Shown here: in pieces, positions 3,059-63,510 of the stretch
How positions within the stretch are numbered: the first letter of the stretch is position 1
Layout of the letters: every line of letters begins with the position of its first letter
IMG/VR virus record: IMGVR_UViG_3300042691_019786
DNA: 64,000 nucleotides
Strand: one strand, 5' to 3'
Source of the DNA: a virus
The notes under the pieces: generated by a model
Database searches by the model: none
What the model was told of the DNA's origin: nothing
What the model saw: the letters and a program-made list of their open reading frames with translations, nothing else
Made by a program: the position numbers and the translations under genes

Positions 3059-4429
3059 TTATCTAATAAAACCCATTGTGGATTTTTCTTTTTCGACTTG
3101 ACTGGAATAGAATCCTTTGTATGATTCTGTAATCAATGATACAGTATCATTGATACCCCAGTTTTCGTCATCTTCTGACATTTCTCTGATGTTATCAGCT
3201 AAGTTAGCGATAAACGCACCAGTGATTTTTGCTTTTTTACCGTTTATTGTTCCAGTCAAAGCATCATAAACGTCTTTAACTCTCCATTGCTCTGGTAAAT
3301 GAATATCACATACTTTGATGATTTGTTCTTCATCTAAGAAACTATAATCCAACGTGAAATTAAAACGACCTGGTCTTTCAGCAGCTTTATCAACCAATCC
3401 TTTATCGTTAGTTGACGCTAACAAACTAATTTTTCGTTTCTTCACACCATCAAAGAAAGATAAGAACTGACCTAATAATCTAGTGTAACTTCCGTTATCA
3501 CGTGAACCTAAATATAAGTCGATGTCGTCCATAATGATTACAGCGTTCTCAAATATTTCACAAGACTCCATAATCATTGTTAAATCATCAGCGTGAGTAA
3601 AATCTGGGATAATAAACGTTACATTTGGTACTAGTTTTCTACACATTTCACGAATTGATTCCGTTTTACCAGTTCCTGGTTCTCCATTAAGTAAGTATCT
3701 AGCATTACCACCTCTAGAAACTCTAGTAACAAAGTGTTCAATGAATTTTCTTTGAGTTTCATTCAAAATTAATTCATTTGATGATTCTTGAATATCAATA
3801 ATCTCAATTCCTTTGAATCTATAATCTCTTAATTTAACTTTGATACACTTACCAACATATTCAGAATTGTTAAACGCAATCTTTTTAATGTCTTTAAAGA
3901 TTTCAAAAAGTTTTGTTTCATCCATCATATTTTTACAAGCAATGTGAAGTTGCATAATTAATTCACCTCTTCCATCAATATAGATTTTAGTTTGAAAAAT
4001 AAAATCGTTATCAACGTCTTTGATTTTACCTTTAAACCAGAACGATTCAGTGTTATCAAACGCACCATTAAAATCGATACGACCAACACCATCAGTTTTA
4101 CCATAACTGTCTAATGTGATATCAGTTTTAATTTTTTTACGATAAGTATCGTATAAAAAAGAGTTAATTACAGCTAATTCGATAATACTAATATCATCAG
4201 TATATCTATCAGTTTGATATTCTTCTAGTTCTAACTCATCATTAGTTTCAACTGCTGTAACACCCAAACTAGGGTATTCAGTTTCTATTGTTTCATTATT
4301 TTTCATATATTTATTTCGTAATGTACCTATATCATTTCTAGCATATGAAGCTTCTCTACTTAATTTTTCAATTAACCTTTCATGCTTTTTAATTATGTAA
4401 TCTTCAATTTTTTTCTTTTTTTCGCTCAT
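3059..4429 (-). CDS. AAA+ ATPase
   Basis: Walker A GEPGTGKT, Walker B IIMDDID, SRH STN..D.AAERPGRF. Confidence 0.85.
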   Translation of the reverse strand: MSEKKKKIEDYIIKKHERLIEKLSREASYARNDIGTLRNKYMKNNETIETEYPSLGVTAVETNDELELEEYQTDRYTDDISIIELAVINSFLYDTYRKKIKTDITLDSYGKTDGVGRIDFNGAFDNTESFWFKGKIKDVDNDFIFQTKIYIDGRGELIMQLHIACKNMMDETKLFEIFKDIKKIAFNNSEYVGKCIKVKLRDYRFKGIEIIDIQESSNELILNETQRKFIEHFVTRVSRGGNARYLLNGEPGTGKTESIREMCRKLVPNVTFIIPDFTHADDLTMIMESCEIFENAVIIMDDIDLYLGSRDNGSYTRLLGQFLSFFDGVKKRKISLLASTNDKGLVDKAAERPGRFNFTLDYSFLDEEQIIKVCDIHLPEQWRVKDVYDALTGTINGKKAKITGAFIANLADNIREMSEDDENWGINDTVSLITESYKGFYSSQVEKEKSTMGFIR

Positions 4430-7962: not shown

Positions 7963-8445
7963 CTAATTGAGATTCTTGGTTTCATTTTGAATAGCAATTT
8001 CTTTTTCTTCAGTGCTCAAAAGACCTTTACCATACTTCTCAATTCTTTCGTAATACCTTTTCTTAACTTCTTCTGTTATTGGAATTGGTTTACCTTCATC
8101 GTTTATTCTAACAAACTTTATATTTGTTTTAATTGCTATTTCTTGGTCGCCAGTGTAAACATCGTGTTTTCTTAATTCAACATACAAAGTTACTGATGTT
8201 TTACCAAAATTCAAAACTTTTGCGTATAGTTTAATTATGTTATTAACTTTAACTGGTTTGTCGAATATCAAATCATCAATTTTAACAGTTACAACTCTTG
8301 GGGTATCACATATTTGCGCCACATACGCTGCACTGCTTTCATCAATTATTGATATCAACCTACCACCAAAAACATTTGAATGTACACCGACATCACTGGT
8401 CTTACATAAATAGGTAGTTACTAATTCCATATTTTCTTTTTTCAC
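7963..8445 (-). CDS. Acyl-CoA thioesterase (hotdog fold)
   Basis: N.FGG.L...IDE, GKTS and FV.I...GKP motifs. Confidence 0.85.
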   Translation of the reverse strand: MKKENMELVTTYLCKTSDVGVHSNVFGGRLISIIDESSAAYVAQICDTPRVVTVKIDDLIFDKPVKVNNIIKLYAKVLNFGKTSVTLYVELRKHDVYTGDQEIAIKTNIKFVRINDEGKPIPITEEVKKRYYERIEKYGKGLLSTEEKEIAIQNETKNLN

Positions 8446-9471: not shown

Positions 9472-9803
9472 TATTTTACATCTGATAATTTAATTTTTAA
9501 TTCTAATCGTCTATCAAACCATTCTAAAAACTCTTCTTTTGTCATTTCATCAACAATTTTATTGAATCTTTCAGTGATATGTTTTGTATCTATTTCTAAA
9601 TTTAAATGAGAGTTTTCTGGTTCAACATCATCTTTGTTATCAACCATAGTGTTTAACACACCAACAGATGTCGTTATAGTATCTCTCATTTTCTTAGCCC
9701 ATGATGACCATATTGATAAATCACCAGTAGTCCAATCAGTTCTTGTTGATTTACTTAATTCATTAGCTAACGTTTTAATTAATTGTTTTTCACTATTCTT
9801 CAT
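9471..9803 (-). CDS. Hypothetical protein
   Basis: ORF overlapping its neighbour by 4 nt. Confidence 0.6.
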   Translation of the reverse strand: MKNSEKQLIKTLANELSKSTRTDWTTGDLSIWSSWAKKMRDTITTSVGVLNTMVDNKDDVEPENSHLNLEIDTKHITERFNKIVDEMTKEEFLEWFDRRLELKIKLSDVK

Positions 9804-11000: not shown

Positions 11001-11672
11001 TTATTTTCTTCCTTTAACCCAACCTTCGTTTAGGTATGTGTCTAACTCTTCTTTCTTAATCTTCTTATTAGAACCATCCTTAGTTATCCAACATGTACCA
11101 TATTGACTGTTTGATTCACCAATACCTTTACCTTTAGATGATTCAGACATTTTCTTTTTAGTTTGGTCAGAATGATTTTTACCTCTAAATGGTGAACCAA
11201 AATCAAAACCAGAATGTTTTTGACCATTACTAATATTCTTACCTCTAATCAACTTTTCTTCTTCAGTTAAATTTGAATGGTAATTTTTAATAATTACAAT
11301 TTTAAATTTTTCACCATACTTTTCTTTTAGTTTTTCATCACATTTAACCCTACCTAACTTTACACCGTCTTCGGATATAAACCCTCCTTCACCACCAACA
11401 ACTAAATTCATACACTCATCTTTTGCTATTTCATCTAAAGTAACGATTTCTTTTTCTCTTTTTTTCAAATCGGCTCTAGTTTCACAAAATTCTAAAATTT
11501 CTCGCTTGAAATTTGATTTGCCATGTTTTCTAATAGCTAACCTCAATCTATTCCCACTACCTAAATATCCATCATCTAGACTATCGGTACTATGCATTCC
11601 TATATAATATCTACCACTTAATATATTAGTAGTTTTATATATAAAATGATACTTTTTTTCTTTCCTCGCCAT
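11001..11672 (-). mobile_element. GIY-YIG (Seg-like) homing endonuclease with NUMOD3
   Basis: FIYKTT..YYIG.H..Y.GSG and GKNHS.TK.K.S motifs; lies in a tRNA cluster. Confidence 0.88.
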
Positions 11673-12259: not shown

Positions 12260-12321
12260 AAGATAGTATGTTACGTGTCAAAATAAAAGTTTGATGTTTG
12301 GTAATTTGCTGAAACTATCTT
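12260..12321 (-). ncRNA. TCAGCAA-stem RNA displaying a Lys(TTT) anticodon-like hairpin
   Basis: AAGATAGT-TTCAGCAA...tcaaa-ctTTTat-tttga...ACTATCTT; lies just after a promoter motif. Confidence 0.55.
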
Positions 12322-12395
12322 TTATTATTATATTGCAAATGTACAAACTATTTTTTACATATGCAAGTTTTTTTTGTGAAAAAAATTCACTTTTG

Positions 12396-12753: not shown

Positions 12754-12788
12754 AAAAAAACCCAGTCTAGATTTCTCTGAACTGGGCC
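12754..12788 (-). terminator. Attenuator terminator 1
   Basis: ggCCCAGT...ACTGGG-TTTTTTT; the 5' arm is also complementary to ACTGGGC inside the leader ORF. Confidence 0.8.
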
Positions 12789-12809
12789 TTATAAGTGTTT
12801 TTATATTTC

Positions 12810-12911
12810 TTATAATGTAGTCAAGTCAAACAACATGACACGCCCAGTCGATTGCGGTTGTCCGCCTTTCGTATACTGTTTCGGTTGATATGTCATATAA
12901 GTTGTTTTCAT
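12810..12911 (-). CDS. Leader peptide 1 MKTTYMTYQPKQYTKGGQPQSTGRVMLFDLTTL
   Basis: Residues 1-20 are only M,K,T,Y,Q,P,G; downstream tRNAs are Pro, Pro, Gln, Tyr, Thr, Gly, Gly, Lys, Lys. Confidence 0.85.
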   Translation of the reverse strand: MKTTYMTYQPKQYTKGGQPQSTGRVMLFDLTTL

Positions 12912-21239: not shown

Positions 21240-21368
21240 AAGATTGCCCTTTTTTTTGTGCTACCCTTACACCACACGCCCCTACCTCTGTTTTAGGACA
21301 TGCTGGGATTCGAACCCAGTCCCTTTGTTATCTATACAAATTTTTAGTTAACTTGCTGAAACAATCTT
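21240..21368 (-). ncRNA. Circularly permuted tRNA-mimic (YrlA-like topology) on a TCAGCAA stem
   Basis: AAGATTG-TTTCAGCAA, then T arm, loop-closed acceptor stem, D arm, CAATCTT. Confidence 0.65.
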
Positions 21369-21409
21369 TTAATTACTCTGTAAGACAGAGGACTTAATAC
21401 TGGGGGAAC

Positions 21410-21533
21410 AAGATTACTTTTTTGATACGTGCTCTATCCGCTGAGCTAACCGCCCAATTAAGGACAGTATGGGATTCGAACCCATGACCACGAGGTTAAC
21501 AGCCTATTCAGTTTTTGTTGCTGAAATAATCTT
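21410..21533 (-). ncRNA. Circularly permuted tRNA-Asn mimic on a TCAGCAA stem
   Basis: AAGATTAT-TTCAGCAA, agg-ctGTTaa-cct, T arm, loop-closed acceptor, D arm, GTAATCTT. Confidence 0.65.
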
Positions 21534-21585
21534 TCTTTCCCTTGTAACATTCTACGCAGTTCCCCACGTAGAATATTATTGCTAA

Positions 21586-22218
21586 TTACTTACCAGCTGG
21601 TGCAACGTTAATTGAACCTACTGACCCAGCTTTTGCTCTTTCGATACCAGCTGAACGCTCTGCATCTAATTGTGCATACAACTTAGTCACTTGTTCTTGT
21701 AAGAACTCGTTTTGAGTTGCTAATGTACCAATTTTAGCAGCGTTCTCAGCAGCGATTGCTTTGTTCTCAGAGTGAATCAATTTGATTTCATTCTCGTACT
21801 GAGATTTCAAAGTAGCAGCAACTGTTGCAACTTCTTTCTTCACTGTGTTTTCAGTGTTAGCTTTAGTTGAGTCTAACTCAGAACGTAAAGTTGTTAATTC
21901 ACTTGTTGCGATAGAAGTGTATCCGTTTGCACGTAACCACTCGTTAACAACTCTTTATTGGTTAGCTTTGAAAGACAATTCTAACTCAACGTCAGCTTGT
22001 CTACGTTTCTCAGCGTACTCTACTTCTAATGAAGCGATAGCTTCTTCTTTGTTAGCTACTAACAATGTTAATTGGTCAGCTTGCTCAGACAATGTTGTTA
22101 CAGTTGCTGTAGCAGCTTTCAATTCGTTAACAGCTTTAGTGATTTGCGCTGCCGCTTGTCCTAAAACTACTTCTGTGTTTGCAGAAGCTTTTCTTGCTGG
22201 TGTACTTTTTGTCGCCAT
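21586..22218 (-). pseudogene. Coiled-coil protein interrupted by a single in-frame TAA
   Basis: ORFs 21955-22218 and 21586-21843 share a frame: ...FKANQ*RVVNEWLRANG... Confidence 0.7.
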
Positions 22219-24370: not shown

Positions 24371-24496
24371 TCGGAAGGGTTAGACTCGAACTAACACTCT
24401 GCGGTTCCGATTAGCGTTTTATTTGCTGAACTTAATCTTTAAAACAGATTAAACTTTTTGCAATACCGCTGCCTCTACCAATTGGGCTACCTCCCG
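24371..24496 (-). ncRNA. tRNA body whose anticodon loop is replaced by the TCAGCAA stem
   Basis: Normal acceptor, D and T arms; TTAATCT/AGATTAA-GTTCAGCAA inside the gcggt/accgc stem. Confidence 0.65.
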
Positions 24497-24732
24497 TATT
24501 AAGAGTAAATTTAAGGTTTCATTTACTCTTCTGCATTTCTGCCATCATAAATTACCGCTAAACCGCTAAATAAAGTTTCATTTATAATAGTCGAGTTTTT
24601 ACTTTAAAACCATCACTACGAAAAAAGCAATTACTGTATGGTCGTAATTTACCTTCAGTTTTTAATTCCAGAATGTTTAAAGAGCCTATCTGCGGACATT
24701 TAACTGAAAACGTGACCTTTCGCTCTACCTTG

Positions 24733-24807
24733 TGACTTCGGAAGGATTCGAACCTTCGACCTACGCATTAGAAGTGCGTTGCTACTATCCAGCTGAGCTA
24801 CGAAGCC
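24733..24807 (-). tRNA. tRNA-Arg(TCT)
   Basis: acgca-ctTCTaa-tgcgt. Confidence 0.9.
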
Positions 24808-25123
24808 AATTTGTGGAATTTTTCGGCTTTCCACTACCTATCTGACCATTCGCATCAGAACCAGTGGTCTCTGTTTTTTTCATCGTATTATTACTAATTA
24901 GGTACCACCCTAACCATACGACTATATGAACGGTAGTTCAAACGTATTTTATCATAGACATTCTACATATATACGTGGGCCATGGACAGCCCAATATTTT
25001 TTAGTGAGTAGCATTGTGATTTATGTGAGGCTCTACTGAGAAATATTTTAACGCTTTGCGTGCCTTTTCATGTTCACTACTCTAAAGATTCTACTCTCTC
25101 CATTACTGAGAATCACCTAAATG

Positions 25124-25197
25124 TGGTCCTTGATGGGCTCGAACCATCGACCTACTGATTATGAGTCAGTTGCTCTAACCTACTGAGCTAAAGGACC
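25124..25197 (-). tRNA. tRNA-CAT (Ile2 or Met)
   Basis: actga-ctCATaa-tcagt. Confidence 0.88.
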
Positions 25198-28996: not shown

Positions 28997-29027
28997 AAAA
29001 AAAGGTTGACTGTTTAGGTCAACCTTT
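28997..29027 (-). terminator. Attenuator terminator 2
   Basis: AAAGGTTGAC-ctaaaca-GTCAACCTTTTTTT; AGGTTGACCT also pairs with AGGTCAACCT in the leader. Confidence 0.85.
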
Positions 29028-29049
29028 CAAATATAGTATAGTTACTTAA

Positions 29050-29139
29050 TTAACTACATACATAGGTTGACCTCCCTAGGCTAAAATCGGCCTCGGCTGC
29101 GAAGAAGTCAAATTCAAATATGTTATTAATTGTTCTCAT
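29050..29139 (-). CDS. Leader peptide 2 MRTINNIFEFDFFAAEADFSLGRSTYVCS
   Basis: Run FEFDFFAAEADF; downstream tRNAs are Phe, Glu, Glu, Asp, Ala, Asp, Ala. Confidence 0.88.
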   Translation of the reverse strand: MRTINNIFEFDFFAAEADFSLGRSTYVCS

Positions 29140-31147: not shown

Positions 31148-31180
31148 AAAAAAGGCCTATCAGTTATTTGATAGGCCTTT
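31148..31180 (-). terminator. Attenuator terminator 3
   Basis: AAAGGCCTATCA-aataac-TGATAGGCCTTTTTT; alternative pairing with the leader end GGTGGGCT..GTATGTT. Confidence 0.85.
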
Positions 31181-31203
31181 CGTATGTTTATTTTATGACT
31201 TCT

Positions 31204-31278
31204 TTAACATACATAGCCCACCACGTTTACCACTAGTAAACATAAAAGTAACGCTGATTGTGTGTAAAAAGTTTTCAT
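31204..31278 (-). CDS. Leader peptide 3 MKTFYTQSALLLCLLVVNVVGYVC
   Basis: Run LLLCLLVVNVV; downstream tRNAs are Cys, Val, Val, Leu, Leu. Confidence 0.88.
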   Translation of the reverse strand: MKTFYTQSALLLCLLVVNVVGYVC

Positions 31279-48529: not shown

Positions 48530-49654
48530 TTACAACATTTTATATAACGTTTTATCGTCATAGTTAAACATATATTCTTCAACTGATGCTATTTTGTAAT
48601 CTTTCAACCCAAAATACAACCCAGTAAAGTTTTTTAAATCATATTTCTCACAAACTTCAAACACAGCAGCAGCAAACTTTTTTTGTTCTGGTTTTGTTAC
48701 GTTTTTTGGTTTACGCAACTTTAATTCATCCCATACAACATTCAATTTTGCAACCAACGCATCGTAAGACTCTTTAAGACGATTTAATTCTTCTGTTCTT
48801 TCTGGGAAAGTAGCAGCAAATTCTTCTATCTCGTTAGTTTTTACAATAGTTAATATGTTGTGTTCAGCAGTTTTACCTTTCAAGTGGTGTACCGCAACAT
48901 ATGCTGGATTTTTCACTTTAACACGATTGTCATTACCATCACGTACAACATAACCTTCTTCAGACCATGGCATACCTTCAAATGTTTTCAACAAGTGACC
49001 AACATTTTTTGCGTTTAAATCAAAAGATTTTACCAATGGTATATCCAATGATACCGCAGTCATTTCCAAGTCTCTCCCAGACAACTCAACAAGTGTTTTT
49101 CTGTTTCTAACAGCCAACAAAGTCGCTGATGATTCACCATGTGGTTTTACTACTATGTTATATGGTGTAGTTAACTCAAACACATAGATATAATCATAAT
49201 TTAACAAACATGCATTGAATGTGTATTTGTTGTTAACAGTATCCCAAAACAATTCGTTAAATTTAGTACCATTTTTGTTGTTAACTTCACCTTCACCGTT
49301 TGCAGTACCAGTAGTACCAGCATACCATGTCATGTCGTGCCAATCATAATACACTTGTATCATAGTACCATCCAATTTTTCAAGTACTTGTGCAGTATTC
49401 CAATCTATTTTAGCAGCGTTACCTTCTTCAGAGTTGAAGAATTTTCTAAACGCCAAAGACATTACGTTCCAAGTACCTTTTTCAAGGATGATTCCACGAC
49501 AATCTTGCATCTCTGGCAATGACATAAGTGTTGGTGACACTAATTGGTCATACTTCAAGAGTATTTTGTGTTCATACTCTCTAGTTTTTAAAGAAAAGTC
49601 TTTGATTGTTTTTTCTAAACCGTGTGTTCTTAAATATTTTTGTATAGCTAACAT
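48530..49654 (-). CDS. Rnl1-family (T4 RnlA-like) RNA ligase
   Basis: CRG, KFFN, EKLDG, FEL, EGYV and VKVK...Y motifs. Confidence 0.9.
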   Translation of the reverse strand: MLAIQKYLRTHGLEKTIKDFSLKTREYEHKILLKYDQLVSPTLMSLPEMQDCRGIILEKGTWNVMSLAFRKFFNSEEGNAAKIDWNTAQVLEKLDGTMIQVYYDWHDMTWYAGTTGTANGEGEVNNKNGTKFNELFWDTVNNKYTFNACLLNYDYIYVFELTTPYNIVVKPHGESSATLLAVRNRKTLVELSGRDLEMTAVSLDIPLVKSFDLNAKNVGHLLKTFEGMPWSEEGYVVRDGNDNRVKVKNPAYVAVHHLKGKTAEHNILTIVKTNEIEEFAATFPERTEELNRLKESYDALVAKLNVVWDELKLRKPKNVTKPEQKKFAAAVFEVCEKYDLKNFTGLYFGLKDYKIASVEEYMFNYDDKTLYKML

Positions 49655-50108
49655 GCGTTAATTTTTTAATGTTAGACAAATGTAGGTATAAATTTTTAAT
49701 AAAACAAATAAAACGATGATTAATTTATTTCATCATCGTTTTTACCATTGTTTTTATCTCTTAGGCTATTTATTTTTTTGATAAACTCATCATAAGTTTT
49801 ATCATCCAATTTATTGTTAAATAAATCAGCAATAGGGTTTTCATCTTGCATAGCGTCTAATATCTTCTTTGATGAAAACATTGAGCATAAGTCAGAAAAT
49901 TTAAATATATCATCATCACCACCTATGAGTAAACCACTCATAAAAACCATAATTGTACCAAATTGAGCTAAAGCTATATCACCTTCTTCTTTACCTTCAG
50001 TAATAAGAGATTGGCCCATTTTCATAAATTTGGTACTTAAATCCAATCTTCTGTCGATTTCTTTTCTGTTCATAAAACTATTTTTAACTAATATACTAAA
50101 TAAAACAA

Positions 50109-50756
50109 TTACTTGCAATAATAACTTGAATCAATTCTGATAGTAACACCATATTTCCTAGATAACGCATCAAATCTAGCGTCTAACTTCTTGTCAAAAC
50201 CAAAACTTTCTTCCAACTCGCCCTTTTCATCAACAAAATAAACAATGTATGAATTATCATTCCATGATTTTCTAATAAACTCAACTTTTAACTCACCTTT
50301 AAAGTATTCATCAATAACTCTAGAAACATCTTCTTTGATTGCTTTAGCGTCAACGTTATATTTGTATTGAATACCCATATCATTCATTGATTCCGATACT
50401 AGTTTGTTGTATTTACCAAATCTACCATTAACCAATACTTCCATTGGTTGCCATTTAACAACATGTGGTTCGTTATGTTCTATATTACCAGAATAATCAG
50501 CTAGATATGTGAAACCCATGAACCCATCTTTATGGATAGCAAAAATAAGTCTTAGATTAGTGACATCTAATCCAGTTTCTTCTTTTGTTTCACGTATCGC
50601 TGTGGTTTTAGGGTCACCATTGTCTTCTGGGTCCATTTTTCCTCCAGGTAATCCGAAATCATTATGGTCATCTTTTCTAGAAACACCTAAAATGTAACCT
50701 TCTGGATTAATTAGCACAACTTGTGCTGAAACTTTAATATCCTTATCAATCTTCAT
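50109..50756 (-). CDS. Nudix hydrolase
   Basis: LPGG.....AIRETKEETGL. Confidence 0.88.
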   Translation of the reverse strand: MKIDKDIKVSAQVVLINPEGYILGVSRKDDHNDFGLPGGKMDPEDNGDPKTTAIRETKEETGLDVTNLRLIFAIHKDGFMGFTYLADYSGNIEHNEPHVVKWQPMEVLVNGRFGKYNKLVSESMNDMGIQYKYNVDAKAIKEDVSRVIDEYFKGELKVEFIRKSWNDNSYIVYFVDEKGELEESFGFDKKLDARFDALSRKYGVTIRIDSSYYCK

Positions 50757-50951
50757 ATTTTGTTATCTTTAAATTTTTGTCAATAAAAATATCATTTATG
50801 TTTAATATTTCTTTGACGTGAAATACTTCAGTTCTCATATCTGCCAATAAATTATCTTCTGGCACAAATTTTATTTTGTAAAGGGGTCCTTCTATCCATA
50901 GAATTTCTGAATATACAAAACCCCACCCTTTTAAATTTAATTTAACTTCGC

Positions 50952-51848
50952 TCATTGTTTTTTTATTTCAGTGACAATACCACTTATCATAAATGATTTA
51001 ATGTCTTGCCATTTTGTTATTTGATTGCTCATAACTGGTTTACCACCATCTGGGTTAATCGCAATAGTTATATGTGGAATTTCATTTTTTGATGGATAAC
51101 CGCTAACTCTTACAGCCATAGCTTTATCTGAAAGACCTAACGCTTCAACTGTCAATGTAACTTCTTTACCTAAATCAGTTTTATCTTTAAGTTCACCCAA
51201 ATTTATTGTCATATGATGTGTTATCACAGTCCAATCTTTTGGTATCCATATACCAAGTTTATCCAATAACGTACCTTTGGATTGTCCATCCAACAAAACA
51301 CAAGAATATAACACATCTGATTGTTTATACATATCTTTAGATTCAACTATTTTTTTAACAGTCAATGGCCCAACAGATTTATGTGAATCCATCATCATTT
51401 TTATTTTATCTAATGGAACTCCATGTGTATTTGACTCAGCTAATTGCTCAGCAGTCAAGTTACGAGTGCCAACATCATGTATTTGTATGTTGTTATCATC
51501 AAATCCCATTTCCAACGCTGCAACAACATATGCTTTAGCCTCATTGGCTTTGATATTCGTGTTATCTATTACAACTGGACTAATACCATCTTTCATAGAT
51601 TTGATTGCGTTAGATAAGTTCTTAGAGTGCATTCTAGACAAATCTTTAAAGTCTCCAGACTCTATCATTTTAGCAAAGAAACCTCTGTAGTCACCAGTAG
51701 CTTCAATTAAATCATCTGTTGAATGAATTATCCCTTCACCCATTAGTGATTTCGCCATTGTTGATTTTCCAGCCCCAGGAATACCACGCATCACAAACAA
51801 TTTTTGTGATGGTCTAGTTATTTCGATATTTAAAACATTTTTTTTCAT
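50952..51848 (-). CDS. P-loop polynucleotide kinase fused to a 2H cyclic phosphodiesterase
   Basis: GIPGAGKST, DNTN and HGVP motifs; HMTI and HITI. Confidence 0.82.
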   Translation of the reverse strand: MKKNVLNIEITRPSQKLFVMRGIPGAGKSTMAKSLMGEGIIHSTDDLIEATGDYRGFFAKMIESGDFKDLSRMHSKNLSNAIKSMKDGISPVVIDNTNIKANEAKAYVVAALEMGFDDNNIQIHDVGTRNLTAEQLAESNTHGVPLDKIKMMMDSHKSVGPLTVKKIVESKDMYKQSDVLYSCVLLDGQSKGTLLDKLGIWIPKDWTVITHHMTINLGELKDKTDLGKEVTLTVEALGLSDKAMAVRVSGYPSKNEIPHITIAINPDGGKPVMSNQITKWQDIKSFMISGIVTEIKKQ

Positions 51849-51904: not shown

Positions 51905-52840
51905 TTAATGTTGGTTATTTACTTTCATAACGCTACCATCACTATAACGGTAAATTATTAATCCATTATAATCAGCGTTAACTGTTTGCCCTAATATGTT
52001 AATTATATTGACTAGTTTTGCTTTATCACCTTTATCATTTCTATTATCTATTGATATTATATCACTAACGTCTTTTTTACCATCGTAATCAGTTTGTTTT
52101 AAACGATAGTATGTTATAAATGGTTGTAAATTATAATCATGATACTCATAATACAATTGATGTGTTGAATAGCCAGCACCTTCAATATTGTCAATAACAT
52201 GAAAATTATAACCATCATAACTTTTTTCAATCGTGAAATAATCATTATTTATTTCAGTCGCTGTTGACCAAAATAAAAGATTATAGTCGTTAACATTTTT
52301 ACCTTTAAAATATATCAATTCTATTGGTAATGGCGTTGGGTCCATTTCAACAATTTTAACGTCCTCAATATATAAAGTAGTCGAAAAGTAAGTTGAATTA
52401 ACCAATATTTGAAAATATACAGTTCCATCATAGTTTGATGAATAAACATCAGTCCATTGATACCAATTTGTCCAATTTGACGAACAATCTGGATTTGTTG
52501 ATGAATAACTTTGAATTAATGTTGTTTGATTGGCTGTTTCGTTGACGTTAACTGTTAAACTACAAACCCTTTTTGTCCAAAATGTTATAATATAATTTTT
52601 ATTTGATTGTACTGTAACTGGAAAATAAACATATTTTGGTGAACTAGCTGACCAACTAGTTAATCTTAACGCCCATGTGCCAGATAATGCATTACCAGAA
52701 CCATAGTTGTTTAACATCCACCCAGATGGTGTTGATGACCAACCAGAAGTTGTTGGTGGAGAAAAATCTTCATCAACCAAAGTTGTTTGTGATAATAACA
52801 ATGTTGGTAAAAATAGGATTAAAAATAGTATTGTTTTCAT
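51905..52840 (-). CDS. Secreted Bacteroidetes-type protein (CBM-like plus PLPIEL/Ig-like domain)
   Basis: Signal peptide; PLPIEL..F...W.TATE.NND.F.IE.S.DG...YYRLKQ.D.DG. Confidence 0.7.
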   Translation of the reverse strand: MKTILFLILFLPTLLLSQTTLVDEDFSPPTTSGWSSTPSGWMLNNYGSGNALSGTWALRLTSWSASSPKYVYFPVTVQSNKNYIITFWTKRVCSLTVNVNETANQTTLIQSYSSTNPDCSSNWTNWYQWTDVYSSNYDGTVYFQILVNSTYFSTTLYIEDVKIVEMDPTPLPIELIYFKGKNVNDYNLLFWSTATEINNDYFTIEKSYDGYNFHVIDNIEGAGYSTHQLYYEYHDYNLQPFITYYRLKQTDYDGKKDVSDIISIDNRNDKGDKAKLVNIINILGQTVNADYNGLIIYRYSDGSVMKVNNQH

Positions 52841-52896
52841 AGTTAAGTTTTACATTAATAAATATATAAAACTATACTAATAAAGATAACATTTTG

Positions 52897-52981
52897 CGGA
52901 GAGCAGAGGAATCGAACCTCATACCAAAAAGGTACGTCACGATTAGCAGTCGGACCCTATCGCCATCAAGGATTACTCTCC
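52897..52981 (-). tRNA. tRNA-Ser(GCT)
   Basis: Loop ctGCTaa; long variable arm; G73. Confidence 0.85.
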
Positions 52982-52987
52982 ATTTTG

Positions 52988-53060
52988 TACCCCCACAGAG
53001 ATTCGAACTCCGATACTGGCCTTAGAAGGGCCATGTCCTATCCAGTTGAACGATAGGGGC
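52988..53060 (-). tRNA. tRNA-Arg(TCT)
   Basis: tggcc-ctTCTaa-ggcca. Confidence 0.88.
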
Positions 53061-53069
53061 AGATTGTTG

Positions 53070-53142
53070 TACACCTACAGAGATTCGAACTCCGATTTAT
53101 CGCTTCGTAGGCGATTGTCCTATCCAGTTGAACGATAAGTGC
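53070..53142 (-). tRNA. tRNA-Arg(ACG)
   Basis: atcgc-ctACGaa-gcgat. Confidence 0.88.
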
Positions 53143-53148
53143 ATGTTG

Positions 53149-53218
53149 TACCGACTGTGAGGTTCGAACTCACTTAACCATCCATATGAGGGACGGTCCT
53201 TTTCCACTAAGTGTCGGC
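53149..53218 (-). tRNA. tRNA-CAT (Met/Ile2) with a shortened D arm
   Basis: cgtcc-ctCATat-ggatg. Confidence 0.7.
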
Positions 53219-53224
53219 ATTTTG

Positions 53225-53326
53225 CTCACCCACTAGGATTCGAACCTAGGACCTAACGGTTAACACTCCTTGTATGAACTTACTTATCATACCTAGCCGT
53301 TTGCTCTACCACTGAGCTATGGGTGA
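53225..53326 (-). tRNA. tRNA-Asn(GTT) with a 30-nt insert (53265-53294) in the anticodon loop
   Basis: aacgg-ct[insert]GTTaa-ccgtt; the rest is canonical. Confidence 0.8.
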
Positions 53327-53336
53327 ATATTTGTTG

Positions 53337-53410
53337 CTCTCCCTCTAGGATTCGAACCTAGGACCCACGCATTAACAGTGCGTTGCTCTAACCTACTGAG
53401 CTAAAGGAGA
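53337..53410 (-). tRNA. tRNA-Asn(GTT)
   Basis: acgca-ctGTTaa-tgcgt. Confidence 0.92.
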
Positions 53411-53420
53411 ATATATTTTG

Positions 53421-53497
53421 TACAGAAGGTGAGATTCGAACTCACATGTGACCAACTACCCTTTCTACAAGATATAAGCTTGAGGGGATACATCTGC
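53421..53497 (-). tRNA. Non-canonical tRNA-Ile(TAT) lacking a normal D arm
   Basis: Acceptor and T arm present; caag-ctTATat-cttg; D-loop-like TAGTTGGT lies 3' of the anticodon arm. Confidence 0.6.
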
Positions 53498-53503
53498 ATC
53501 TTG

Positions 53504-53575
53504 TTGTCTAACCCAGACTCGAACTGGAAATACTGCCGTATCAGAGCAGCGTGATAACCATTTCACCATTAGACA
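53504..53575 (-). tRNA. tRNA-Ile(GAT)
   Basis: ctgct-ctGATac-ggcag. Confidence 0.88.
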
Positions 53576-53775: not shown

Positions 53776-53845
53776 AATGTTGTGAGTCTGTGAATAGCAG
53801 ACCTTACAACATATCAAATTCTTTTTTCATAAAATTAAATTTTAG

Positions 53846-53932
53846 CGGAGAGGGTGGGACTCGAACCCACACACCTCTAGGGCCTACCGCTTTCAAGGCG
53901 GTTGCAGTTAGGCCAACTCTGCTTACCTCTCC
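53846..53932 (-). tRNA. tRNA-Ser(TGA)
   Basis: accgc-ctTGAaa-gcggt; long variable arm. Confidence 0.9.
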
Positions 53933-53964
53933 GTATTTATAATTAACTAATATTCAGTTAATTG

Positions 53965-54035
53965 CACAAGTAGAGAGACTCGAACTCCCGTCAACGGTTT
54001 TGGAGACCGCTATTCTACCACTGAACTATACTTGT
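53965..54035 (-). tRNA. tRNA-Trp(CCA)
   Basis: gcggt-ctCCAaa-accgt. Confidence 0.9.
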
Positions 54036-54075
54036 GTATTAATTTACCAACATGTCAAAGAACTTACAGTTCAAG

Positions 54076-54148
54076 GGTGATTAACCAGAATCGAACTGGT
54101 ATCAATAGAATCACAATCTATCATGTTAACCGTTACACCATAACCACC
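54076..54148 (-). tRNA. tRNA-His(GTG)
   Basis: G-1:C73; ataga-ttGTGat-tctat. Confidence 0.9.
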
Positions 54149-54150
54149 AT

Positions 54151-54729
54151 TTATTTATTCTTACCAGCGTATGTTTCAGTTTGTGAATGACAATTAGGAC
54201 ATAAAAAACGTAAATTTTCTATTCTATTATCATTATTTATACCGTTAATATGGTCTATTTGTAATATTAGTTTACCACCCATCCATTCACCAGTATTACC
54301 ACAACTTACACATTTATACTCTAATAAATTACTTCTTAACACTCTATTCTTTAAATGACCAGAATTATATTGTGAATTTTCACAAAATATTTCAGAATCA
54401 CTATATTTTACCTTAGTAACGTTTCTTCTAGGGTTACCTTTATATAAATCATTATCTATTCCATATAAATCAAAATACCTTTTTAACGTTCTATAATTAC
54501 CAGCTTTTAGTGTTAAACCCATTTTTTCTAACACTTCAGCTTTAGAATTTGAAGATTCTATTAAAGGTTTTAATTCTTCAAAACTCCATTTATGATAATA
54601 TTTTTTAGGTTTAAGACCATATTTATCTGCCCAATATCTTATAGTCGTTAATGATTTATTAGTTTTTTTACTTATTTGTCTTAAAGATAAACCTTCTTTA
54701 AGAAGTTTTTCTAATTCTATTTTTTCCAT
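54151..54729 (-). mobile_element. HTH-HNH homing endonuclease
   Basis: C..CG...DHING...DNR.ENLR.LCPNCH. Confidence 0.9.
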
Positions 54730-54786: not shown

Positions 54787-54821
54787 AATCTAGCACTCTA
54801 ACCAACTGAGCTAACGCCACC
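54787..54821 (-). pseudogene. 5' half of a tRNA-His-like gene, truncated at the anticodon loop
   Basis: GGTGGCGT-TA-GCTCAGTTGGTTAGAGT-G-CTAGA-TT, then the HNH promoter. Confidence 0.7.
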
Positions 54822-55001
54822 GTCTATTGTAACAAATATTATTATGTTACCGTTTTCTTTTTTAAATCTTAGGTCACCGTTGTAACCCATTTGTTTTGCT
54901 TTTTCTTTATACTCGTCAACTATTTCATCAAAGTTTTCGTTAAACTTTTTTACTTTTACTTTTCCGAGTGGTCTTACTAATTCTTCCATAGTTATAAGCA
55001 T

Positions 55002-55034
55002 AAAAAAAGCCTTGATTTGTGGTCAAGGCTTTTT
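55002..55034 (-). terminator. Attenuator terminator 4
   Basis: AAAAAGCCTTGA-ccacaaa-TCAAGGCTTTTTTT; GCCTTGACC also pairs with GGTCAAGGT in the leader. Confidence 0.85.
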
Positions 55035-55059
55035 GTTGATTACTTCATAAAATGTTTTA

Positions 55060-55155
55060 CTATTCTATGATGTTATTTAACATACCTTGACCGTTATGGA
55101 AACTATTGCGTCTCCAATTATTAATCGAAATCATATGTATGTTAATTGTTCTCAT
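55060..55155 (-). CDS. Leader peptide 4 MRTINIHMISINNWRRNSFHNGQGMLNNIIE
   Basis: Rich in R,I,N,H,M,S,W; downstream tRNAs are His, Trp, Ser, Ile, Ile, Asn, Asn, CAT, Arg, Arg, Ser. Confidence 0.88.
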   Translation of the reverse strand: MRTINIHMISINNWRRNSFHNGQGMLNNIIE

Positions 55156-57112: not shown

Positions 57113-58243
57113 TCAAAAAATAAATATATCTAGATAAAGTTTTTTAAAATTATCAGTTTCTAGTCTTTGTATTTCTTTACCTAATTCTGGTCCTTGTTTT
57201 AACCCCATCTTTGTCATTAGGTCTGAACCATTAACCGTTAATTTAAATAATAAAAATGTATCTATAATCTTTACATCAATACCACTTAATTGAGCAAATC
57301 TAGTTATTTGTTCTGCTGTTACACCAGATGTCTTTTCAGCTTTTTTAAGCGTTACAGCTGTATCAATCGACAAATTCAATAGACTAATCAAAAATGTAAT
57401 AGCTCTTATTTCATCAATTGAGTATTTTAATTTGTTCAATTGTTTTGTTAATAAATCAACTTTATTATTCTTTAACAACATTGCTAAAACAATAATTATA
57501 TCATTATCTTCAATGAAATTTTTATTAACATTAACATCTTTAAAAACCCAATCAAATAAATTGTATTTGTCAATCATTTTTAAAAACGATTTTACAGATT
57601 TTGCTGATTTGATACCTTTCAAAAACTCATCTCTGATTCTTTCACCAGATATACCTTCCAAACTAGCATCTTTTTGCAATGCAGCGTCAACTGATGGGTC
57701 TAATTCACTACCAAATCTACCAGCAAATCTAATTGCTCTTAATATACGTAATCTATCTTCACCAAATCTATCTTCAGCTGCACCTACAGTCCTTACAACA
57801 CTGTTTTTAAGGTCTTCTATACCATCAACCAAATCAACAACTTCTGACGTGTCTATATCGTAAAATAATGCGTTGATTGTTAAGTCACGTCTTTTAACGT
57901 CACCTACTATATCTGTAAAACTAACACCATCTGGTCTTCTACCGCTAGATAAGTCTTCCCTAAAAGTTGCGATTTCGTATTCACCCATATCAGTAAAGAC
58001 GTTGATAACACCAAATGCTTTACCAGTTGGTAAAGTTCTAAAACCACCTTTAGCCATTATGTCTTCCACTTGGTCTGGGATAGCATCGGTTGCCAAATCG
58101 TAATCTTTAGGTGTTTTACCTAACAACGCATCACGCACTGCACCACCTACAACATATAGGTTAAAACCATTTTGCTTAAAAACATCTTTTATTTGTAAAA
58201 TGTCTTTTGGTATTGGCATATCAAATATAATTCTCTTTTCCAT
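57113..58243 (-). CDS. cca: CCA-adding tRNA nucleotidyltransferase (class II)
   Basis: VGGAVRD...DYD, RRDLTINAL, EDRLRILRAIRF and ERI..E motifs. Confidence 0.92.
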   Translation of the reverse strand: MEKRIIFDMPIPKDILQIKDVFKQNGFNLYVVGGAVRDALLGKTPKDYDLATDAIPDQVEDIMAKGGFRTLPTGKAFGVINVFTDMGEYEIATFREDLSSGRRPDGVSFTDIVGDVKRRDLTINALFYDIDTSEVVDLVDGIEDLKNSVVRTVGAAEDRFGEDRLRILRAIRFAGRFGSELDPSVDAALQKDASLEGISGERIRDEFLKGIKSAKSVKSFLKMIDKYNLFDWVFKDVNVNKNFIEDNDIIIVLAMLLKNNKVDLLTKQLNKLKYSIDEIRAITFLISLLNLSIDTAVTLKKAEKTSGVTAEQITRFAQLSGIDVKIIDTFLLFKLTVNGSDLMTKMGLKQGPELGKEIQRLETDNFKKLYLDIFIF

Positions 58244-59671: not shown

Positions 59672-59723
59672 AACTTTTTTTTAATAAATATATCAATAAT
59701 AATGCCAAAGTAAACATTATTTG

Positions 59724-59794
59724 TGGTCTTAGAGGGAATCGAACCCTCACTATCGGTTTTAGAGACCGTTACGCTGCCGTTACATCATAAGACC
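59724..59794 (-). tRNA. Amber suppressor tRNA (CTA)
   Basis: Cloverleaf; acggt-ctCTAaa-accga; own promoter motif at about 59806. Confidence 0.88.
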
Positions 59795-63196: not shown

Positions 63197-63264
63197 ATTA
63201 ACTTCTTAGTCACCATTTAGGTGTGCAATAACCACTACGTGCAAGTGAGTTAATTTCGGTTATC
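63197..63264 (-). ncRNA. HDV-like (theta) self-cleaving ribozyme
   Basis: P1 GATAAC/GTTATT, P2 ATTAACT/AGTTAAT, P3 CAC/GTG, P1.1 GC/GC, P4 CACC/GGTG, J4/2 aCTAAGa; starts right after the tRNA discriminator. Confidence 0.8.
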
Positions 63265-63336
63265 TAGCGGAGGAAGGAATCGAACCCCCGACCTCAAGGT
63301 TATGAGCCTTGCGAGCTACCTCTGCTCTACTCCGCA
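63265..63336 (-). tRNA. tRNA-Met(CAT), initiator-like
   Basis: 1:72 mismatch; caagg-ctCATaa-ccttg. Confidence 0.88.
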
Positions 63337-63341
63337 ATGTG

Positions 63342-63419: not shown

Positions 63420-63423
63420 ATAG

Positions 63424-63498
63424 TTGGCCAGAATCTGTTTTTTTTACTTTGCTTAGAATATAGTATAGTTAAATTGCTGAATAGATTCTTTCTGCCAA
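63424..63498 (-). ncRNA. TCAGCAA-stem RNA
   Basis: TTGGC..AGAATCT-ATTCAGCAA...AGATTCT.GCCAA. Confidence 0.55.
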
Positions 63499-63510
63499 TA
63501 AGTTTATCTC

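Follow-up and report, generated by a model that had tools for sequence, protein, structure and literature searches.

The window, which is the whole 64,000-nucleotide stretch of viral DNA analysed (IMG/VR record IMGVR_UViG_3300042691_019786), has a G+C content of 30%, carries nearly all of its genes on the minus strand and contains 34 tRNA genes called by ARAGORN. It also encodes a DNA ligase, for which the top annotated match is that of Cellulophaga phage phi4:1 (50.6%), a CCA-adding enzyme, an Rnl1-type RNA ligase and a kinase/phosphodiesterase. The leader described below and its neighbours are found in genomes of 360-369 kb, which are rated complete or near-complete and encode a T4-like Gp23 capsid protein. 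When one large relative genome was searched, LR756508 and Flavobacterium phage immuto were the closest. Many genes of the window are preceded by the motif TAnnTTTG, which we take to be the -7 element of the Bacteroidetes-type promoter consensus. Because of the genome size and Gp23 of the relatives, the identity of the closest phages and these promoter motifs, the source is probably a giant (jumbo) freshwater phage with a presumed host among the Bacteroidota. The stretch analysed here for attenuation is identical across four independent assemblies.

The features of the locus are listed in Table 1. A leader ORF is preceded by a predicted host-type promoter and followed by an intrinsic terminator, which lies ahead of a small ORF and a block of tRNA genes for His, Trp, Ser, Ile, Asn, Met and Arg. 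The preliminary description had named ten kinds of leader codon in this region, all of which are found in the ORF: AGA (positions 2 and 15), ATT (4, 9 and 11), AAC or AAT (5, 12, 13 and 17), ATA (6), CAT (7), ATG (8), TCG (10), TGG (14), CGC (16) and AGT (18). Two leader codons do not match the block, Thr3 and Phe19, neither of which falls within the predicted stalling window. The seven amino acids of the block account for 28.9% of the phage codons, so that the probability of finding them at 14 of 14 positions of the window of codons 5-18 by chance is ~3e-8. TAnnTTTG is found within 100 nt upstream of the leader in 75 of 79 homologs. Seven of the eight minus-strand copies of the second A/T motif, which abuts the start codon, fall outside long ORFs, and this motif is a possible phage-specific promoter. 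A near-match of it precedes the HNH gene and could allow the switch to be bypassed here. No host-type promoter was found between 55211 and the end of the tRNA block by motif scan.

Table 1. Features of the leader, the tRNA block and related units (coordinates refer to the window unless another genome is named)
Feature	Coordinates	Strand	Basis or remark
Host-type promoter, TTGACA + TAnnTTTG (-7)	55234-55229 + 55211-55204	minus	motif-based; predicted start
Second A/T motif directly upstream of start codon	55156..55171	minus	55/79 homologs
Leader ORF, 31 codons + stop	55060..55155	minus	ORF call; frame kept in homologs
Predicted sensor window, codons 5-18, solely His/Trp/Ser/Ile/Asn/Met/Arg	55102..55143	minus	79-homolog codon count
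1:2 hairpin within leader ORF (putative protector/pause)	55075..55146	minus	minimum-energy fold; pairing conserved in homologs
Segment 2, antiterminator 5' strand (codons 22-24)	55084..55092	minus	pairs with 55029-55021 after removal of segment 1
Intrinsic terminator (3:4 + U run)	55002..55034	minus	5' arm 55029-55021 common to antiterminator
63-residue ORF, first gene past terminator	54798..54989	minus	same place in ~70/79 homologs
tRNA-His 5' half, broken at anticodon loop	54787..54821	minus	intact tRNA-His continuation in L067, L217, L234
HNH homing endonuclease within first tRNA-His	54151..54729	minus	PF01844; same insertion in L065
tRNA-His(GTG)	54075..54147	minus	ARAGORN + Rfam
tRNA-Trp(CCA)	53964..54035	minus	ARAGORN + Rfam
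tRNA-Ser(TGA)	53845..53932	minus	ARAGORN + Rfam
tRNA-Ile(GAT)	53503..53575	minus	ARAGORN + Rfam
Atypical tRNA-like element, TAT anticodon arm	53419..53497	minus	uncalled by ARAGORN and Rfam; slot comparison
tRNA-Asn(GTT)	53336..53410	minus	ARAGORN + Rfam
Second tRNA-Asn(GTT), ~29 nt anticodon-loop insertion	53225..53326	minus	Rfam 58.4 bits; fold
Atypical CAT tRNA, weak D arm, uncalled	53147..53218	minus	cloverleaf fold z -2.96; slot comparison
tRNA-Arg(ACG)	53069..53142	minus	ARAGORN + Rfam
tRNA-Arg(TCT)	52987..53060	minus	ARAGORN + Rfam
Divergent tRNA-Ser(GCT)	52895..52981	minus	sub-threshold Rfam; fold; called at same place in relatives
Sister attenuator, Cys/Val/Leu block	31153..31278	minus	sensor window 55% in own set
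Sister attenuator, Phe/Glu/Asp/Ala block	29003..29139	minus	sensor window 80% in own set
Sister attenuator, Pro/Gln/Tyr/Thr/Gly/Lys block	12760..12911	minus	sensor window 92% in own set
phi4:1 units (L372, KC821632)	1066-1134, ~2030-2109, 3772-3870		one overlaps hypothetical gp075, two unannotated
phiCbK leader ORFs (L377)	8082-8144, 9541-9678, 11342-11440		9541-9678 = hypothetical gp335

The 63-residue protein has a small predicted beta-alpha-alpha-beta-beta fold (pLDDT 86), in which G9, A31 and G35 are invariant; Pfam, PHROG, PDB and Atlas gave no assignment for it, with a best structural Z of 5.3. All ten anticodons that had been placed downstream of the leader are present, and seven of them (GTG, CCA, TGA, GAT, GTT, ACG and TCT) belong to called tRNAs, but GCT, CAT and TAT are carried by atypical or uncalled elements. 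The Ser(GCT) gene gives a sub-threshold tRNA-clan match of 36.8 bits and folds into a long-arm cloverleaf. The CAT element occupies the slot of the elongator tRNA-Met in the relatives. The TAT element lacks a normal D arm, although its anticodon and T arms are present, and is not a canonical tRNA; it is near-identical in L211, L067 and L085, and the same slot in relatives holds a canonical Ile2-type CAT tRNA. The slots of these two elements support the anticodons previously assigned to them, and decoding by either is putative. TAT-like elements with an acceptor stem, an anticodon arm and a T arm and with no normal D arm are also seen in L061, L126, L129, L191, L231 and L234. The elements that lack the D arm have TAT or CAT anticodons and lie beside canonical tRNAs for the same amino acid, and this family could represent decoys for anticodon nucleases or unusual tRNAs. 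The insertion in the second tRNA-Asn is a hairpin located after U33, is similar in L065 and is a possible small intron.

The block is flanked by genes for an Rnl1 ligase, a kinase/cyclic phosphodiesterase and a CCA-adding enzyme (48530-51848 and 57113-58243), as it is in most relatives, and these genes probably constitute a tRNA repair and maturation kit. The RNA end-healing kinase/phosphodiesterase follows the block in 35 loci and the Rnl1 ligase in 25, and the CCA enzyme lies upstream of the block in 45. The kinase gene has no strong terminator before it in 32 of its 35 loci, with another host-type promoter between in 25 of the 35, and the attenuator may also gate the RNA-repair genes. Directly behind the block lies a 311-residue ORF (51905-52840), which has a signal-peptide-like N-terminus, homologs in 11 loci and no Pfam match. 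Several tRNA genes are located outside the attenuated blocks: an Ile2-like CAT tRNA (25123-25197), a second Arg(TCT) (24732-24807), an initiator-like CAT tRNA (63264-63337) and a CTA-anticodon, amber suppressor-like tRNA (59723-59794). Long hairpin-like elements with a TTCAGCAA core are repeated at 21300-21600, 24371-24496, 12260-12330 and 63420-63500, and some of them are nested in tRNA halves.

Distinct copies of the leader, 79 in all and related by descent, were gathered by pattern and neighbour searches; owing to this relatedness, Fisher values from comparisons among them are nominal. From Trp-9 to Trp+4, 1105 of 1106 codons of these homologs encode amino acids of the block, as compared with only 444 of 1125 beyond Trp+4. 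The codons of the sensor window are partly fixed by the search pattern, and controls were run. The 26 leaders found without pattern-fixed codons all carry TCG, AGA and CGN, and a search in which the pattern codons were left open gave no new leader (54 of its 55 matches were already known and the remaining one is a chance match). At the free positions of the sensor window, 32 of 33 distinct amino-acid changes remain in the set of seven. Frame 0 is open in 79/79 homologs and each other frame reaches a stop codon in less than 60 nt in 79/79, and all alignment gaps within the ORF have lengths divisible by three. Conservation is strong over the first 18 residues, and in the second half of the ORF the protein varies freely and complementarity to the leader's own terminator arm is kept. 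Among the tRNAs called downstream, 571 of 599 are for the seven amino acids. L067 carries two tandem units of different lineages on one contig (9015-9160 and 10575-10721).

A search of annotated phages with the leader by tblastn gave no match. A scan of bacterial genomes gave 102 pattern matches, among which L344 is the sole true unit. L344 was rejected as a chromosomal unit; it lies on a 20 kb MAG contig, its leader and next ORF are near-identical to viral ones, and the contig is probably misbinned. A chromosomal version was thus not found with this pattern, which would miss divergent leaders.

The antiterminator strands named in the preliminary description, GGTCAAGGT (55092-55084) and GCCTTGACC (55029-55021), are present and form nine pairs including one G.U, and GCCTTGACC is the 5' arm of the terminator. 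The minimum-energy fold of the complete leader consists of the in-ORF hairpin and the terminator (z -6.25), and only ~1% of synonymous recodings give an equally stable 1:2 hairpin. When the 5' half (segment 1) is removed, the minimum-energy fold switches to the long antiterminator, even with the 3' arm of the terminator still present. The antiterminator covaries with the terminator arm across the 79 homologs: the mean energy of the leaders' own duplexes is -13.5 kcal/mol, that of swapped partners is -9.5 and that of shuffles is -7.0, and the best of 10,000 swapped-partner permutations (-10.7 kcal/mol) is weaker than the own-partner value. The leader stop codon is separated from the U run by 51 +/- 3 nt in the homologs.

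The effect of a ribosome was modelled on a transcript that ends before the 3' arm of the terminator, with an assumed 3' footprint of 9-15 nt. In this model, a ribosome stalled at the control codons would leave segment 2 free: the antiterminator pairing is 0.77-0.89 with the ribosome at positions up to Trp+4, 0.50 at +5 and at most 0.22 from +6 onward. The codons of the amino-acid set stop at the same edge, being in the set in 79/79 homologs at Trp+4, in 68 at +5 and in 24 at +6. When the full transcript is folded at equilibrium, the terminator is favoured in most homologs wherever the ribosome is placed. Equilibrium models that include the ribosome footprint gave no clean switching and were rejected as the sole basis of the switch. 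The terminator wins at equilibrium, and therefore the switch would have to be kinetic. A kinetic race between ribosome and polymerase is the textbook model of attenuation (PMC1183508). The truncated transcript modelled with no ribosome likewise prefers the antiterminator (0.78), which counts against the attenuator reading as regards an off state of the untranslated leader.

The preliminary description had claimed that every isoacceptor of the block has a sensor codon in the leader. This holds for the window if the three atypical elements are counted as tRNAs, and it holds as a tendency in the family, but it is not a rule. All ten decoder classes are represented by a codon in 74 of the 79 leaders, and in 77 when the sensor window is widened by one codon per side; the coverage expected among 14 random codons of these amino acids is 0.4%. 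For the leader of the window taken singly, ten-class coverage is not significant (p 0.05-0.06 with the peptide given, and 0.10 among the recodings that keep the hairpin). A strict barcode in all members is contradicted by the clusters that carry other tRNAs: Arg(CCU) is present in six of 38 complete clusters and its cognate AGG codon in none of their leaders, and Ser(GGA) is present in nine of the 38, five of which have no UCY codon. Six of the ten codon-anticodon pairs named in that description are wobble pairs rather than Watson-Crick pairs.

Several single codons tend to be moved rather than lost. In 55 leaders the sole internal Met codon stands at position -6; of the 24 remaining leaders, 20 have it at one of four alternative positions instead, hence at least four relocation events would have occurred. 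A tree built from 200 nt of downstream sequence was too poorly resolved for counting independent codon moves. When the usual position has been lost, ATA is kept elsewhere in 6/6 leaders and AGY in 10/11. Codons of both Arg boxes occur in all leaders, including those from the search that left them open. A UCY codon occurs only alongside Ser(GGA), in that all four leaders with UCY precede such a cluster, as compared with 5 of the 34 leaders that lack UCY. The leader therefore probably covers a core set of decoders by design, and does not carry an exact barcode for each cluster. The loss of a single isoacceptor is somewhat more likely to register than to pass unnoticed, and the output is not specific to that isoacceptor, because the block is one transcript.

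A blind scan of the window for short ORFs followed by terminators gave three further units, at 12911, 29139 and 31278, each ahead of a tRNA block. Together with the His/Trp/Ser/Ile/Asn/Met/Arg block, their blocks cover all 20 amino acids with none repeated; every leader fits its own block best, and the true assignment of leaders to blocks ranks 1 of 24. The four genomes of 360-369 kb share this arrangement of tRNAs in four blocks, and a leader was detected ahead of most of them. Host-type promoter motifs are seen inside the sister blocks, past their terminators (28926, 28837 and 12343); these internal promoters could bypass attenuation.

The strongest test is provided by reassortment in unrelated phages, in which the tRNAs are grouped otherwise and the leaders follow. 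LR756502 (642 kb) has seven units, for example Phe/His/Trp/Lys, Arg/Ser, Ile/Gly/Ala and Gln alone, and the true assignment ranks 1 of 5040, with two of the seven units fitting weakly. The true assignments in Cellulophaga phage phi4:1 and Caulobacter phage phiCbK rank 1 of 6 each. The three leader-terminator units of phi4:1 have sensor windows that are 89-100% in their own sets, and one of these leaders must begin with GTG or another non-ATG codon. In phiCbK the leaders precede annotated terminators at tRNA blocks, and two of the three fit well. Isoacceptors are also separated in these phages: phi4:1 has CGT in its Arg(ACG) unit and AGA, near the window edge, in its Arg(TCT) unit, and the unit of LR756502 that contains Ile(TAT) alone has ATA three times.

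The locus accordingly has an ORF under coding constraint past a predicted promoter, control codons cognate to the tRNAs behind it, a terminator before the first gene and a covarying antiterminator. The reading of 55002-55155 as an attenuator is strongly supported by the covariation, the geometry and the reassortment in other phages, and this stretch is very probably a ribosome-mediated transcription attenuator controlling the tRNA operon of the phage. We infer that it would operate as follows. Host RNA polymerase would initiate at the upstream promoter, and a ribosome would translate the leader. When all His, Trp, Ser, Ile, Asn, Met and Arg codons are read fast, the ribosome would move past codon 19 and cover or split segment 2, the terminator would form, and transcription would end at ~55002. 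When any codon of the sensor window is read slowly, the ribosome would remain on codons 5-18, where it would break the 1:2 hairpin and leave segment 2 free. The free segment 2 would then pair with the 5' arm of the terminator while the 3' arm has yet to be made, so that the 63-residue ORF and the tRNA block would be transcribed. The tRNAs produced would restore the decoding of the same codons, which would constitute negative feedback on the supply of usable tRNA. The trigger would most plausibly be a loss of tRNA, such as that caused by host nucleases or by a drain late in infection, because extra tRNA cannot cure amino-acid starvation and only tRNA loss would therefore be a useful signal. With less confidence, and at slightly below even chance, we suggest that large phages survey the whole tRNA pool decoder by decoder in this manner, that loss of a single isoacceptor, for instance to an anticodon nuclease of the host, is answered with a block of replacement tRNAs, tRNA-like decoys and a small protein, and that the design arose or spread across phages of Bacteroidota and Caulobacter with the amino acids grouped differently.

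It is possible, but clearly less probable than the reading of individual tRNAs, that the attenuator senses amino-acid supply or general translation speed, that codon identity is fixed by the 1:2 hairpin and that the presence of one codon per isoacceptor is a by-product. In the folds of the 79 leaders, the third base of ATA is paired in 71, that of TCG in 54 and that of AGA in 69, and the invariance of these codons is also explicable by RNA pairing in this hairpin. TCG and CGC are rare in the phage (2.1 and 0.4 per 1000 codons), TCG is not the Watson-Crick partner of TGA, and the marginal coverage statistics of the window and the absence of AGG from clusters with Arg(CCU) point in the same direction. 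Against this explanation stand the reappearance of ATA and AGY elsewhere after their loss, the two Arg codon boxes in every leader, the restriction of UCY to Ser(GGA) clusters and the codons that match the separated Arg and Ile isoacceptors of phi4:1 and LR756502.

That the leader acts as a timer, which opens on collapse of host translation, late uncoupling or binding of a phage protein and not on specific codons, is improbable. The truncated transcript favours the antiterminator 2:3 pairing without a ribosome as well (0.78), and the promoter-like second motif immediately before the start codon would suit such a timer, but a timer does not need leaders that mirror their own blocks or that are rewritten upon regrouping. 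It is still less credible, and very unlikely, that the locus encodes a functional small peptide ahead of a constitutive terminator, with the tRNAs transcribed from elsewhere. The strong conservation of the first 18 residues and the two homologs (L068 and L109) that retain the leader with the tRNA block deleted favour this explanation. The conserved part, however, tolerates any change inside the set of seven amino acids, the C-terminal half varies freely with its terminator complementarity kept, and a host-type promoter is absent from 55211 to the end of the block. In L068 and L109 the terminator is intact, the 3' end of the small ORF is damaged, and the kinase gene, with its own promoter motif, lies less than 0.5 kb further on.

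The proposed tRNA attenuator resembles trpL, hisL, leuL and the multivalent thrL and ilvGMEDA leaders in having an ORF with control codons, a 1:2 hairpin, mutually exclusive 2:3 and 3:4 pairings and a presumed race between ribosome and polymerase. Synonymous codon choice matters in the leu leader (PMC1183508). The amino-acid leaders control biosynthetic enzymes and carry their control codons as a run, whereas the phage leader is viral, precedes tRNA genes, contains mostly single codons for its seven amino acids and ten decoder classes and, unlike the leaders of amino-acid operons, is part of a four-unit set that spans the whole code. It scores below cut-off in the Rfam amino-acid leader families (Trp, His, Thr, Leu and Phe), the best scores being 21 bits for Phe_leader and 20.2 for Thr_leader as compared with a cut-off of 55. 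The E. coli pheST operon, with its pheM leader, is an example of a part of the translation machinery that is attenuated in response to the supply of charged tRNA, as proposed for the phage unit, but its target is an aminoacyl-tRNA synthetase, it responds to one amino acid and it is chromosomal. In T-boxes, the state of one particular tRNA is read by a leader codon and decides between terminator and antiterminator (PMC4695836). The phage leader is similar in this codon-based readout, but T-boxes are untranslated and bind uncharged tRNA directly, whereas the phage leader is an ORF under coding constraint; a T-box was not matched in the Rfam search of the leader either at the gathering threshold or at E-values up to 10.

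The inducible tRNA L-array of Anabaena PCC 7120 is mobile, silent until translation is impaired and associated with a homing endonuclease (PMC8421152). It resembles the phage locus in these respects, but the whole array is induced by general stress, whereas the phage units would be induced block by block through their cognate codons, and attenuation has 0 occurrences in the text of that paper (PMC8421152). Neither attenuation nor a leader is found in the text of PMC10264068, attenuated tRNA genes are not mentioned in the huge-phage survey (PMC7162821), and attenuation is not mentioned in the genome paper of phiCbK (PMC3556154). Literature searches, mostly outside subscription journals, yielded nothing on tRNA genes controlled by leader-peptide attenuation. 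The switch itself is classical attenuation, and the tRNA-gene target, the seven-way sensing and the partition of the whole code appear to be unpublished; attenuation would thereby be extended to the feedback control of tRNA genes. The cultured phages phi4:1 and phiCbK, in which units of the same anatomy have leaders that are unannotated or annotated as hypothetical proteins, make the system testable, and the leaders could serve as compact codon-specific reporters for tRNA-cutting defence systems.

For 50 years it has been an open question why phages encode tRNAs (PMC10264068). Phage tRNAs take the place of tRNAs that host nucleases have cut, with T4 pnk and rnl1 acting against PrrC and T5 tRNAs against PARIS (PMC10264068, PMC12409363), and the passages of the latter article on this subject treat rescue by tRNAs and not tRNA regulation. 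The window resembles these counter-defence systems in that repair enzymes are encoded beside the tRNA block. It differs from them in that a proposed sensor precedes the tRNAs, and this sensor would show when the phage needs them, namely when the codons that these tRNAs read are decoded slowly. Such a switch separates the hypotheses for phage tRNAs, since constitutive codon compensation needs none, whereas replacement after depletion does.
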